13,759 nt of DNA from a virus. Lineage: Duplodnaviria > Heunggongvirae > Uroviricota > Caudoviricetes. Where the stretch lies: IMG/VR virus record IMGVR_UViG_2551306491_000003; one strand, written 5' to 3'. How positions within the stretch are numbered: position 1 is the first letter of the stretch; each line of letters opens with the position of its first letter. Under the pieces are notes generated by a model that was given only the letters and a program-made list of their open reading frames with translations, was not told the origin of the DNA and ran no database searches. Of the stretch, positions 1-13,759 are shown one piece after another. A program made the position numbers and the translations under genes.

Positions 1-261
1 GTTACTGCGGCGCAGTTCACGATTTTCACGTTCCAGCTCTTTCAGACGCTGACGTTCAGCGGTGGTGAGTCCACCATCACCACTCCCGGTATCCCGCTCA
101 TGCTGACGAACCCACACACGCAGAGTCTCTGGTGTACAGCCAATCTTTGGGGCAATGGAACAAATTGCCGCCCATTGTGAGTCATATTCGCCCTGACTTT
201 CCAGAACCATACGAACTGCTCGTTGACGGACCTCGGGGGAAAAACGTGTATTTTTAGTCAT
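1..261 (-). CDS. IS3-family transposase OrfA (helix-turn-helix DNA-binding subunit), N-terminal 87 codons; 3' end outside window
   Basis: Minus-strand translation from ATG (complement of 259..261): [87 protein letters not shown]. No stop within the window, which is why it is absent from the ORF track. Confidence 0.85.
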
Positions 262-315
262 CCTGTTTACCTCTTTCTCAGGGAGTTTAGTCTCCAGGAT
301 TCCCGGGGCGGTTCA
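1..315 (-). mobile_element. IS3-family insertion sequence, IS629/IS1203-like, left-end fragment (terminal inverted repeat plus 5' part of orfA); the element continues beyond the window start
   Basis: Reverse complement of 289..315 is tgaaccgccccgggaatcctggagact, an IS3-type terminus (TG...CA) that matches 23 of 27 positions with the inverted terminus seen at 13562..13588. orfA start codon lies 54 nt inside the end. Identification as IS629 is from memory of its sequence. Confidence 0.85.
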
Positions 316-499
316 GACTGTGATCCCGGGAGAAACACTGGCAGAGCTGAATGCTCTGTCCGGACCTGCGGTCTCTCTGGTGGTGTTTTCTTCGGGATAC
401 CGCCCACGGCGCGGGGATCGCGTTGTTTATGACGGACAACAATGGACGGTCACACGGCATGAACGCTTTAACGGTAAGCCAATGATCTTTATTGAGTAA
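316..499 (+). pseudogene. 3' remnant (60 codons, no start codon) of the phage gene immediately upstream of Z, probably a head-tail joining/head completion gene, truncated by the IS insertion
   Basis: Open frame begins exactly at the IS junction and reads TVIPGETLAELNALSGPAVSLVVFSSGYRPRRGDRVVYDGQQWTVTRHERFNGKPMIFIE, stop TAA 497..499, 11 nt before the Z start. Position matches lambda FII but I could not confirm sequence similarity to FII from memory. Confidence 0.5.
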
Positions 500-510
500 A
501 GAGGTGTGGG

Positions 511-1089
511 ATGAAGGGGCTTGAGAATGCCATCCGCAATCTGAACAGCCTTGATACCCGTATGGTGCCACAGGCCAGCGCATGGGCGATAAACCGTGTG
601 GCACAGAAAGCGGGCTCGGTTGCCACCCGGCAGGTTGCCGGGAATACCGTTGCGGGAGATAACCAGGTGAAAGGGATCCCCCTGAAACTGGTTCGTCAGC
701 GTGTCCGGGTGTTTAAAGCCAGTCCGTCAGGAAAAATGACGGCCAGGATCCGCGTTAACCGGGGCAATCTGCCCGCCATTAAGCTGGGGACAGCCCGGGT
801 CAGACTGGCCCAGCGTGGTGGAAAACTGCAGTACCGTGGCAGTGTGCTGAAGGTGGGTAAATATCTTTTCCGGGATGCGTTTATTCAGCAACTGGCGAAT
901 GGTCGCTGGCATGTGATGCGGCGTATTGATGGCAAAAATCGTTACCCCATTGATGTGGTGAAAATCCCGCTGTCCGGACCGCTGACACAGGCATTTGAAG
1001 ATGCCCGCGACCGCATCATTGCTGCGGAAATGCCGAAACAGCTGGGGTATGCACTGAAACAACAACTGAGGTTATGGCTGACCCGATGA
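511..1089 (+). CDS. Z: Minor tail protein Z (lambda gpZ-like), 192 aa
   Basis: ORF 511..1089 with RBS aaagagg 5-7 nt upstream; same length as lambda Z (192 aa) and same position in the conserved gene order. Confidence 0.85.
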   Translation: MKGLENAIRNLNSLDTRMVPQASAWAINRVAQKAGSVATRQVAGNTVAGDNQVKGIPLKLVRQRVRVFKASPSGKMTARIRVNRGNLPAIKLGTARVRLAQRGGKLQYRGSVLKVGKYLFRDAFIQQLANGRWHVMRRIDGKNRYPIDVVKIPLSGPLTQAFEDARDRIIAAEMPKQLGYALKQQLRLWLTR

Positions 1090-1487
1090 ACCGACATACA
1101 CAAATCCGCCAGGTCGTACTGGCACGCCTTCGGGAACAGTGTGGAGACAGCGCCACGTTTTTTGACGGGCTTCCGGCATTTGTTGATGCGCAGGAACTGC
1201 CTGCCGTGGCGGTGTGGCTGAGTGATGCTCAGTACACCGGAAAAATGACGGATGAAGATGACTGGCAGGCTGTTCTGCATATTGCTGTCTTCATCCGGGC
1301 ACAGGCACCGGATTCAGAGCTGGATATGTGGATGGAGAGCACCATTTTCCCGGCCCTGAATGATGTATCGGCACTTTCCGGACTCATCGACACCCTGATC
1401 CCACTCGGTTTTAACTATCAACGTGATAATGAGATGGCCACCTGGGCGATGGCGGAAATCACGTACCAGATCACGTACACGAATTAA
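1086..1487 (+). CDS. U: Tail tube terminator protein U (lambda gpU-like)
   Basis: Translation carries the lambda gpU motifs ATFFDG, PAVAV, PDSELD.WMES and ends ITYQITY. ATGA start/stop overlap with Z (atg 1086..1088, tga 1087..1089) as in lambda. An in-frame ATG at 1074 is an alternative start. Confidence 0.85.
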   Translation: MNRHTQIRQVVLARLREQCGDSATFFDGLPAFVDAQELPAVAVWLSDAQYTGKMTDEDDWQAVLHIAVFIRAQAPDSELDMWMESTIFPALNDVSALSGLIDTLIPLGFNYQRDNEMATWAMAEITYQITYTN

Positions 1488-1497
1488 GGAGGTGGTA

Positions 1498-2241
1498 ATG
1501 ACCACGCCAAATCCACTGGCAAAGACGAAAGGTGCGGGGACGACGTTCTGGATGTATACCGGCAACGGCGATGCGTTTGCGAACCCTTTGTCGGACACTG
1601 ACTGGCTGCGTCTTGCGATGGTGAAGGATCTGCAACCTGGCGAAATGACCGCTGATGCAGAAGATGACACTTATCTCGATGATGAAGATGCAGACTGGAA
1701 AACGACAACCCAGGGGCAGAAATCCGTTGGTGATACTTCGGCGACGCTGGCCTGGCGTCCGGGTGACAGCGGGCAGAAAAAACTGGTTCAGTTGTTCGAC
1801 TCCGGTGAAGTCTGCGCGTTTCGTATCAAATATCCCAACGGCACTGTTGATGTTTTCCGCGGCTGGCTGAGCTCACTGGGTAAAACCATTGCCTCAAAAG
1901 ACGTGATGACCCGCACAGTGAAAATCAGCGGTGTGGGGCGTCCATATCTGGCAGAGGAGGGCACTGAAACTGTGGGCGTTACCGGGCTGACGGTGGCACC
2001 GGCATCCGCCAGTGTCAATGTGGGAGCAACCACCACGCTGACCTTTACAGTAAAACCTGACGGAGCCAGTGACAAAGCGATCAGTGTGCATTCGACAGAT
2101 CCACAGACAGCCACTGTGACCCTGAACGGACTTGTGGCCACGGTGAAAGGCGTGAAGCAGGGCAGCGTCAGCATTGTGGGCATGACCGCTGACGGGAATT
2201 TTGTGGCTGTGGCTGCGGTGACTGTCAGCGCTGCAGGTTAA
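1498..2241 (+). CDS. V: Major tail tube protein V (lambda gpV-like) with C-terminal Ig-like (Big_2-type) domain, 247 aa
   Basis: RBS aaggagg 1487..1493 then ATG 1498. Size matches lambda V (246 aa). C-terminal about 90 aa is a T/V/A/G-rich beta-strand pattern typical of Big_2 decoration domains. The track ORF 1423..2241 is an upstream in-frame extension. Confidence 0.9.
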   Translation: MTTPNPLAKTKGAGTTFWMYTGNGDAFANPLSDTDWLRLAMVKDLQPGEMTADAEDDTYLDDEDADWKTTTQGQKSVGDTSATLAWRPGDSGQKKLVQLFDSGEVCAFRIKYPNGTVDVFRGWLSSLGKTIASKDVMTRTVKISGVGRPYLAEEGTETVGVTGLTVAPASASVNVGATTTLTFTVKPDGASDKAISVHSTDPQTATVTLNGLVATVKGVKQGSVSIVGMTADGNFVAVAAVTVSAAG

Positions 2242-2261
2242 CAGGACGATACTCATCATTT

Positions 2262-2285
2262 GCCCCGGTTATCCGGGGCTTTTTT
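2262..2285 (+). terminator. Intrinsic (rho-independent) terminator-like hairpin between V and G
   Basis: gccccgg-ttat-ccggggc (7-bp GC stem, 4-nt loop) followed immediately by tttttt. Confidence 0.65.
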
Positions 2286-2301
2286 GCAGGTGGAGAACAT
2301 G

Positions 2302-2688
2302 ATGTTTCTGAAACAGGGCACGTTTAATTATGAAAAGCAGTCCGTGGTGCTCAGTGAGCTGTCCGGGCTGCAGAGAATTGAATATCTGGCGTTTGTTCAG
2401 CAGCGAACGGCAAAGTTTGATGCCGAAGAGGGAGAACTGCCGGAGGCTGAACGACAGATTGCTTTTCTGCGGATGGGGATGGATATCAATGCCTGGCTGG
2501 TTTCCCGCTCACTGTGGAATGCGGAACAGTCTCAGGATGTTGAGACGCTTTGCGCATCCGTTATTACAACATGGTCGTATGATGCCCTGGGAGCGGGGGC
2601 GGAGATGGTTCTGTCGCTGAGCGGTATGGGAGCCATTGAGAATGCCGGGGATTTGGAGCATGAGGTGCTGACGCCGGAAAAGTCCTGA
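2302..2688 (+). CDS. G: Tail assembly chaperone G (lambda gpG-like)
   Basis: Begins MFLK as lambda G does, with LSELS.LQRIE motif. RBS ggag 2292..2295. Stop TGA 2686..2688. ATG 2299 is an alternative start; the track start at 2260 is a TTG inside the terminator hairpin. Confidence 0.8.
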   Translation: MFLKQGTFNYEKQSVVLSELSGLQRIEYLAFVQQRTAKFDAEEGELPEAERQIAFLRMGMDINAWLVSRSLWNAEQSQDVETLCASVITTWSYDALGAGAEMVLSLSGMGAIENAGDLEHEVLTPEKS

Positions 2689-3026
2689 CGCGGGAAATGC
2701 AGTTTGTCATGCGGCTTGCCCGGGAGTTCCGGCGGGCAGACTGGCGGCGGATGCTGTCGGAAATGTCGGCCACTGAGCTTGGTGAGTGGGGCGATTATTT
2801 CCGGATGCAGAGCTTCAGTGATGTGTGGATGGATGCGCAGTTTGCCTCGCTGAAGGCATTGATCGTGAGAATGGTGTCCGGTAGCAGTGATGCTGCGGTG
2901 GCTGATTTCAGCCTTTTACCGGAAGAGAACGGGATACCGGAGCGAACGGACGAAGAACTGATGCATCTTGGGGAAGGTATTTCCGGAGGTGTGCGTTATG
3001 GACCAGATAGCCAACCTGGTCATTGA
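2664..3026 (+). CDS. T: T-frame segment of the tail assembly chaperone, expected to be expressed only as a G-T fusion by programmed -1 ribosomal frameshift near 2676..2682
   Basis: The -1 frame relative to G opens after a TGA at 2661..2663 and overlaps the last 25 nt of G. There is no RBS for the first ATG at 2697. Position and size match lambda T. Confidence 0.7.
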   Translation, partial: GADAGKVLTREMQFVMRLAREFRRADWRRMLSEMSATELGEWGDYFRMQSFSDVWMDAQFASLKALIVRMVSGSSDAAVADFSLLPEENGIPERTDEELMHLGEGISGGVRYGPDSQPGH

Positions 3027-6000: not shown

Positions 6001-6063
6001 GCAGCGGACTTTATGCAACAGCAGGCCCGTGATGGTGGTCGGTTAAGTGGAGCATATCGGTAA
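2998..6063 (+). CDS. H: Tail tape measure protein H (lambda gpH-like), 1021 aa
   Basis: RBS ggagg 2985..2989 then ATG 2998. N-terminus MDQIANLVIDLGIDAAEF resembles lambda H MAEPVGDLVVDLSLDAARF; C-terminus contains INNDGTNGQIGPAALKAVYD and DGG as in lambda H. Long Q/E/R/K/A-rich central coiled-coil region. The track ORF start 2968 is TTG. Confidence 0.9.
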   Translation: MDQIANLVIDLGIDAAEFKNEIPRIKNLLNGAASDAERSSARMQRFMERQTQAARQTMQAASSAATAASVHAQTVEKSAQAHERMAREVEQTRQRMEALSQKMREEQAQAMALAEAQDKAAAAFYRQIDSVKQAGAGLQELQRIQQQIRQARNSGGIGQQDYLALISEVTAKTRVLTQAEEEATRQKVAFIRQLKEQATRQNLSSSELLRAKAAQLGVSSAAEVYIRKMEQAGKATHSLGLKSAAARQEIGVLIGELARGNLGALRGSGITLANRAGWIDTLMSPKGMMPGAVIGGIAAAVYGLGKAWYDGQKEGEEFNRQLSLTGHYAGVTAGQLWTLSRAISGNGITQHAAAGALAQVVGSGAFRGNDIGMVARAAAQMERSVGQSVSDTINQFKRLKDDPVNAAKALDNELHFLTATQLEQIRVLGEQGRSSDAARIAMSALAEETGRRTADIDNNLNALGSTLKYLSDLWSRFWDAAMNIGREDSLDEQIAALQEKVSRAKRLPWTASSSQVEYDQQRLNDLQEKKRQKDLQDAKEQAERNYQEQQKRRNAENAALNRMNETEAARHQREIARINAMQYADQAVRDAAIQRENERYEKALASGKKKTRETRNDEATRLLLQYSQQQAQVEGQIAAARQSAGIATERMTEARKQLLALQQRISDLDGKKLTADEKSVLARKDELIQALTLLDVKQQELQKQTALNELKKKTIQLTSQLAEEERAQRQQHDLDIATVGMGDQQRQRYQVQLSLRQKYQQQLEQLRRDSEQKGTYNTDDYRKAEQALTESLNRQLNENRRYWQQLEVVQGNWKNGVLRAFQDFTVDADNTAETAEQVFSSAFSNMGNGLATFVTTGKLNFKSFTSSVLSDMAKILAQATMMKSIKGIGSVLGFDLSSLSLNANGGIYQSADLSRYSGTVVNRPTFFAFAKGAGVMGEAGPEAILPLRRGADGKLGVVADIGGSGMAMFSPQYNIEINNDGTNGQIGPAALKAVYDLGKKAAADFMQQQARDGGRLSGAYR

Positions 6064-12597: not shown

Positions 12598-13759
<1,162 letters not shown>

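Follow-up and report, generated by a model that had tools for sequence, protein, structure and literature searches.

An IS629 insertion splits the gpFII-like gene of the cryptic prophage Sp3 in Escherichia coli O157:H7 strain Z1486

The window analyzed here, a stretch of 13,759 nucleotides, is 100% identical to the region from 3,849,092 down to 3,835,334 (reverse strand) of the closed genome of E. coli O157:H7 strain Z1486 (NZ_CP062749.1), and it is also the draft contig CAOT01000046.1 (GCA_000321145.1) in its entirety. At its left end lie part of an insertion sequence, the remnant of a small gene, and the homologue of the lambda tail gene Z (Table 1). Both ends of the window fall within IS629 copies, as is expected of a repeat-collapsed short-read contig. 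The prophage is located at the ybhC/ybhB site and carries the genes nleB2, nleC, nleH1-1, and nleD, and the annotation of strain Sakai places the intact form of the interrupted gene in “prophage Sp3, lambda-like phage.” On the basis of this annotation and of the ybhC/ybhB site, the prophage that carries the interrupted gene is Sp3/CP-933K. An Rfam scan of the whole window returned no Rfam family.

Table 1. Features at the interrupted gene (window coordinates unless stated otherwise) and the IS629-family insertions clustered around its start.
Feature	Position	Strand	Evidence
IRL-proximal (left) 315 bp of the 1,310-bp IS629 (IS3 family)	1..315	-	translation, NCBIfam, Pfam
IRL terminal inverted repeat of IS629, end ...GGGGCGGTTCA at 315	291..315	-	inverted-repeat pair, pattern match
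GAC, 3-bp target-site duplication; second copy at L001 5003-5005, beyond the IS	316..318	+	junction alignment, flank extraction
3' remnant (codons 32-91 + TAA) of the gpFII-like “stopper” gene of 91 codons	317..499	+	identity, Pfam, PDB, fold
Hybrid CDS called by PGAP, WP_051045466.1, 79 aa, ATC start inside the IS	260..499	+	annotation
Shine–Dalgarno sequence GAGGTG (501-506) and intact Z homologue (511-1089)	500..1089	+	sequence, Pfam
Insertion in NE1169-1/NE1127, target-site duplication GAC	cement gene	transposase antisense	
Insertion in PSS-11, target-site duplication GAAG	L002 5826-6003	transposase antisense	
Insertion in FDAARGOS_1277/CREC_5, target-site duplication CTC	end 1 nt before start codon	transposase antisense	
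Insertion in Z1486, target-site duplication GAC	codon 32	transposase antisense	

Pattern matching located the IS terminus at window 315 (TGAACCGCCCCGG at 303–315, minus strand). The orfA gene of IS629 begins on the minus strand at 261 and is cut off by the edge of the window at base 1, and its region matches the NCBIfam model transpos_IS3 and the Pfam model HTH_Tnp_1. In Z1486, the complete element occupies L001 5006–6315 (1,310 bp) and has the ends TGAACCGCCCCGG...CCGGGGCGGTTCA; both its length of ~1.3 kb and its imperfect inverted repeats ending in 5'-TG...CA-3' are those of the IS3 family. The terminal inverted repeats found in the closed genome are 26 nt long and 88% complementary, with the 2 arms 1,260 nt apart. 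The 404-aa transposase product contains the Pfam domains HTH_Tnp_1, HTH_21, rve, and rve_3, which agrees with the orfA/orfB organization of IS3 elements; the programmed −1 frameshift and the AL1L pseudoknot are given here as annotated in the database record. Comparison with the IS1203-annotated copy in stf revealed 60 differences in 1,310 nt (95.4% identity), a near-identity to a named IS629/IS1203 copy. Copies with 100% identity to the inserted element are present at other sites in many O157 genomes, among them TR01, EC4115, TW14359, and 9000, as would be expected if it had transposed within the genome.

Alignment of the 2 junctions to the uninterrupted TR01 allele (...GATATGAC–IS–GACTGTGATC...) revealed that GAC was duplicated, so that it flanks the IS on both sides, in agreement with the 3–4 bp direct duplication made by IS3/IS629 elements. 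In silico removal of the IS together with one GAC yielded an exact gene of 276 nt, and this restored allele does not differ from those found in other O157 strains or from gp07 of mEp460, a viable phage. The excised Z1486 flanks showed 0 differences in 11,787 nt from both TR01 and 9000, which indicates that the insertion is recent. CCCGGGA occurs both in the target site and in the inverted repeat of the IS, a likeness that was within chance by a rough count. A derivation of Z1486 from strain 9000, considered because of their near-equal chromosome lengths, is not claimed here; strain 9000 is without both of the Sp3 insertions.

The original prediction, that an IS has cut off the 5' part of the gene upstream of Z and that the open frame beyond it is a gene fragment, was borne out, and the element belongs to the IS3 family. 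With the IS ending at 315, the remnant frame holds 60 codons and a TAA and is 100% identical to residues 32–91 of the 91-aa protein WP_001283153.1 and of mEp460 gp07. The window is without the native ATG and codons 1–31 of the gene. The missing 5' 95 nt were found in the closed Z1486 genome, directly across the IS and 1,310 bp upstream, where they had been expected to lie if they survived; the 5' part, suggested to be missing or displaced, is displaced and not lost. This 5' piece would now encode residues 1–31 followed by 12 IS-encoded residues. The frame had also been described as having no start codon and as beginning exactly at the IS terminus. The former holds for the native ATG but overlooks the internal Val33 codon, which is an in-frame GTG at 320; the latter is right about the position of the terminus, but the remnant frame is open back to 227 inside the IS, with no ATG, GTG, or TTG between 227 and 320. 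It is because the frame stays open into the IS that PGAP called a hybrid CDS across the junction. The hybrid protein was found on only 2 contigs, and the 79-aa CDS is most likely an annotation artifact, while the GTG at 320 and the frame open into the IS may permit translation of some shortened product. The start of the hybrid CDS overlaps the transposase start codon on the opposite strand.

The intact protein WP_001283153.1, which shares 100% identity with gp07 of mEp460, a phage that forms plaques, bears the RefSeq name “DNA breaking-rejoining protein.” Its residues 1–88 match the Pfam family PF13856 (Gifsy-2) with an E-value of 1.8e-17 and 63.6 bits, above the cut-off of 24.1 bits, whereas its score against Phage_attach (PF05354, the lambda FII family) is 19.2 bits, below the cut-off of 26 bits (E = 0.0018). 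Judged by these sequence profiles, the protein in the strict sense belongs to Gifsy-2 and not to Phage_attach. A BLASTP comparison of this protein with lambda FII detected no similarity, and the hhalign comparison with the lambda FII family was marginal (37.6% probability, E = 3.4e-4). The intact protein also matches PHROG 153, “minor tail protein,” and a phmmer search matched it over its full length to the PDB entry 2PP6 (E = 1e-19). The only NCBIfam match of the intact protein, a sub-threshold one to an ABC ATPase, is meaningless; therefore, the RefSeq product name is not explained by NCBIfam.

An AlphaFold2 model (pLDDT 83), built on the sequence P0001, which is 99% identical to the TR01 sequence, comprises an N-terminal helix (residues 4–20) and, after it, a β-sandwich, with a strand at residues 22–26. 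A Foldseek search of the PDB with this model placed 2PP6 at the top (TM 0.84), followed by the lambda neck/portal chains 8K37_M (TMq 0.71) and 8XOW_f (TMq 0.68), both with a probability of 1.00, and then by stopper/neck proteins of phages R4C, Chi, Pam3, and T1. The entries 8K37 and 8XOW include gpFII, and the matched chains are 114 residues long. Since gpFII was modelled from residue 4 to residue 117 (114 residues) in the paper on 8K37 (PMC10721106), the matched chains are taken as gpFII. The N-terminal helix and the β-sandwich of the predicted model are superposable on gpFII in the assembled neck. The gene order at the locus (MCP fusion, cement/decoration protein, stopper-like gene, Z, U, V) agrees with that of lambda (E, FI, FII, Z, U, V). 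From the predicted fold and this synteny, we conclude that the protein probably works like lambda gpFII.

The Sp3 protein thus shares with lambda gpFII (1K0H, 8K37, and 8XOW) its position just upstream of Z-U-V and a predicted N-terminal helix plus β-sandwich, but it is 91 aa long, compared with 117 aa for gpFII, and has no BLASTP similarity to it. The Gifsy-2 prophage protein 2PP6 (PF13856) is a clear homologue, with a TM of 0.84 and ~42% identity. The analogy with FII proposed for this gene is upheld by its position before Z/U/V, by the Gifsy-2 match together with the weak Phage_attach match, and by a fold like that of gpFII in the neck. Both “ATP-binding sugar transporter” (the name in Pfam and for 2PP6) and “DNA breaking-rejoining protein” (the name in RefSeq) look like misnomers when set against the fold and the gene context. 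One docking paper takes 2PP6 as a transporter target. Literature searches on 2PP6, on strain Z1486, or on the draft accession returned nothing useful.

In lambda, the gpW adaptor is seated in a ring formed by the N-terminal helix of gpFII, whose hairpin of residues 46–62 goes into the gpU ring (PMC10721106). The IS separates the equivalents of this adaptor-docking helix and of the first β-strand from the rest of the Sp3 gene, and by analogy with gpFII their removal points to a loss of function, so that the stopper-like gene is likely inactivated.

The Z homologue (Pfam Minor_tail_Z, E = 1.7e-75; 50% identity to lambda Z) has its own Shine–Dalgarno sequence and is translationally independent of the broken gene. 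On the late-operon strand of IS629, there is no terminator-like signal above chance, and scans for sigma-70 promoters, which covered the IS and window 1–2800, returned 0 sites and hence no outward promoter. At window 2262–2279, directly behind the major tail gene V, there is a strong terminator-like hairpin (GCCCCGG-TTAT-CCGGGGC, then T6), and the equivalent site of mEp460 is annotated as a rho-independent terminator. Because this native terminator is located inside the operon, late transcription must be terminator-resistant. In lambdoid phages, terminators are read through by RNA polymerase modified by Q. It had been argued that the IS would cut off transcription of Z through stf unless the element provided outward promoter activity. 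Neither half of this argument was sustained: the scans revealed no such promoter, and a block of Z–stf expression by the IS would be unsupported by the sequence, given an IS with no terminator signal above chance and a native terminator after V that is already passed. The start positions of 2 downstream genes differ between annotations: the U homologue, which ends at 1487, starts at 1074 as the longest ORF (137 aa) and at 1086 according to PGAP (133 aa), and the tape-measure gene, which ends at 6063, starts at a TTG at 2968 as the longest ORF and at 2998 according to PGAP.

Sp3 carries other lesions. Relative to the 502-aa portal of mEp460, the Sp3 portal gene contains a 1-nt insertion at L002 3049–3050, and the frameshift leaves ORFs of 374 aa and ~111 aa. 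These portal pieces are identical in TR01, 9000, and Z1486, that is, common to strains with and without the IS. In the Sp3 of Z1486, the integrase gene is frameshifted, bet is truncated, and all that lay between ninE and the truncated bet, namely, the immunity and replication genes, is gone, leaving no cI, cro, O, or P; the Q gene is present, and the tail genes from Z to J are undamaged. In strain Sakai, the repressor and replication functions of Sp3 are absent, its integrase and portal are defective, and no circularization, replication, or packaging was detected (Asadulghani et al. 2009, PMC2669165). The IS insertion is without consequence for phage production, since Sp3 could by then neither excise nor replicate and had no working portal; it is part of the ordinary decay of a long-dead, well-documented prophage. 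The original prediction had named the insertion, if the protein is needed to join heads to tails, as the reason that no infectious particles could be made even with all tail genes intact. This role falls instead to the older portal and integrase frameshifts and the loss of cI/cro/O/P, in keeping with the inert Sp3 of Sakai, and not all tail genes are intact, as stf is split by a second IS629 at window 13562.

The second IS629, of the IS1203 subtype and with 60 differences from the first, occupies window 13562–13759 and continues in L005. It breaks stf (side tail fibre) in the collagen-repeat region and has its own duplication of GGC. The 2 IS629 copies lie in the same orientation and flank the entire 13.2-kb tail module (Z to stf); such a direct pair could lead to deletion or mobilisation of the module. 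As their target-site duplications are unlike (GAC and GGC), the 2 copies have not yet moved together. The stf junction was found in Z1486 only among 5,426 genomes. The junction in the head–tail gene was likewise found in 1 of the 5,426 complete E. coli genomes (Z1486), and in one draft; in the remaining O157 genomes, the match to the window starts at base 316 with 100% identity. The gene itself is present in 1,826 genomes, 1,821 of which have at least 80% coverage of it in one place, and the median number of places per genome is 1. Rescue in trans by a near-identical paralogue from another lambdoid prophage of the same host was rejected, as each O157 genome has a single copy of the gene at megablast sensitivity.

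The Z1486 insertion in the head–tail gene is one of 4 independent IS629-family insertions within 178 bp (L002 5826–6003; in window terms, from ~175 bp before position 316 up to position 318). In each of the 4, the transposase gene is on the strand opposite to the late operon (Table 1). They occur in different strains and differ in IS subtype and target-site duplication. A regional, orientation-biased hot spot for IS629-family elements in the ~180 bp around the gene start may account for this cluster, but this reading is unlikely.

We consider, with a probability of about 0.93, that a resident IS629 inserted into codon 32 of the head–tail joining gene in an already-dead Sp3, inactivating the gene and leaving phage output unaffected. 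A resident IS629 copy would have transposed into codon 32 of the 91-codon gene in the cryptic Sp3/CP-933K, and this insertion would have duplicated GAC and split the gene into a 95-nt 5' piece and a 3' piece without the native start. Z and the downstream genes would keep their own ribosome-binding sites, and Q-antiterminated late transcription, if any, would still reach them.

Survival of function in the remnant, through initiation at the ATC at 260 or the GTG at 320 and synthesis of a functional hybrid or shortened stopper, is very unlikely. The frame open from 227 to 499, the 79-aa CDS called by PGAP, and a G-rich stretch 9–15 nt upstream of the GTG would permit it. However, ATC is very rare as a start codon, no ATG, GTG, or TTG precedes position 320 in the open frame, and the hybrid protein is confined to the 2 contigs. 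Moreover, a shortened product would be without residues 1–31, which contain helix 4–20 and strand 22–26, the counterpart of the adaptor-docking helix of gpFII, as well as M12, D13, G21, I26, and N27, all of which are conserved in all full-length relatives. It is even less probable that, before the IS arrived, the prophage was competent, and that this lesion made it release free tails and cut the tail operon off from its promoter. The portal frameshift is also present in strains without the IS, the integrase gene is frameshifted, the cI/cro/O/P region is deleted, and Sp3 was experimentally inert in Sakai (PMC2669165); the absence of a terminator signal above chance in the IS and an operon that already reads through the strong terminator after V argue against a cut-off as well. 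These points outweigh the 2 observations in its favor, namely, that Z through J have survived whole and that no near-identical paralogue could complement a gene of which, at megablast sensitivity, O157 genomes have one copy. Finally, the window is a whole short-read contig with both ends inside IS629, and the junction might on that account be an assembly artifact at the end of a repeat-collapsed contig; this is extremely unlikely, as both junctions and the perfect 3-bp duplication are present in the independently assembled closed chromosome.

The preferred reading, a resident IS629 inserted into a dead prophage, gives the event a small biological weight, as one more step of decay in a cryptic prophage whose main value to the host lies in the T3SS effector genes that it carries (nleB2, nleC, nleH1-1, and nleD). 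The 2 IS629 junctions of Sp3 are rare, lineage-specific markers and could serve in IS-based typing. The locus illustrates why short-read contigs of O157 stop in IS629, and it holds 2 pitfalls of annotation, a hybrid CDS whose start lies within an IS and a structural family that is misnamed.

The insertion shares with the known IS629/IS1203 prophage polymorphisms of O157:H7 the same element, the 3–4-bp duplication, the preference for prophages, and the inactivation of a phage gene. According to Rump et al. 2011 (PMC3271280), 62% of IS629 copies lie in prophages, the target duplication is 3–4 bp, and IS629 subtypes differ by 55–60 bp. The Sp3 site is absent from the prophage-associated IS629 target sites retrieved from Table 5 of that paper, whose complete list has 47 sites (PMC3271280). 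Earlier IS629 hits in phage genes of O157:H7 include nu1 of Sp4 (PMC3271280; PMC2669165), and an IS629 copy is located in stx2a of strain 9000 (PMC8743559). The event described here is recent, rare, and specific to one strain; IS629 polymorphisms of this kind are well known, and this one is already annotated in the public record. Other damaged alleles of the 91-aa gene are present in public assemblies, including frameshifts, internal deletions, and N- or C-terminal fusions to unrelated sequence, and these may reflect frequent decay in E. coli prophages, sequencing errors, or both.
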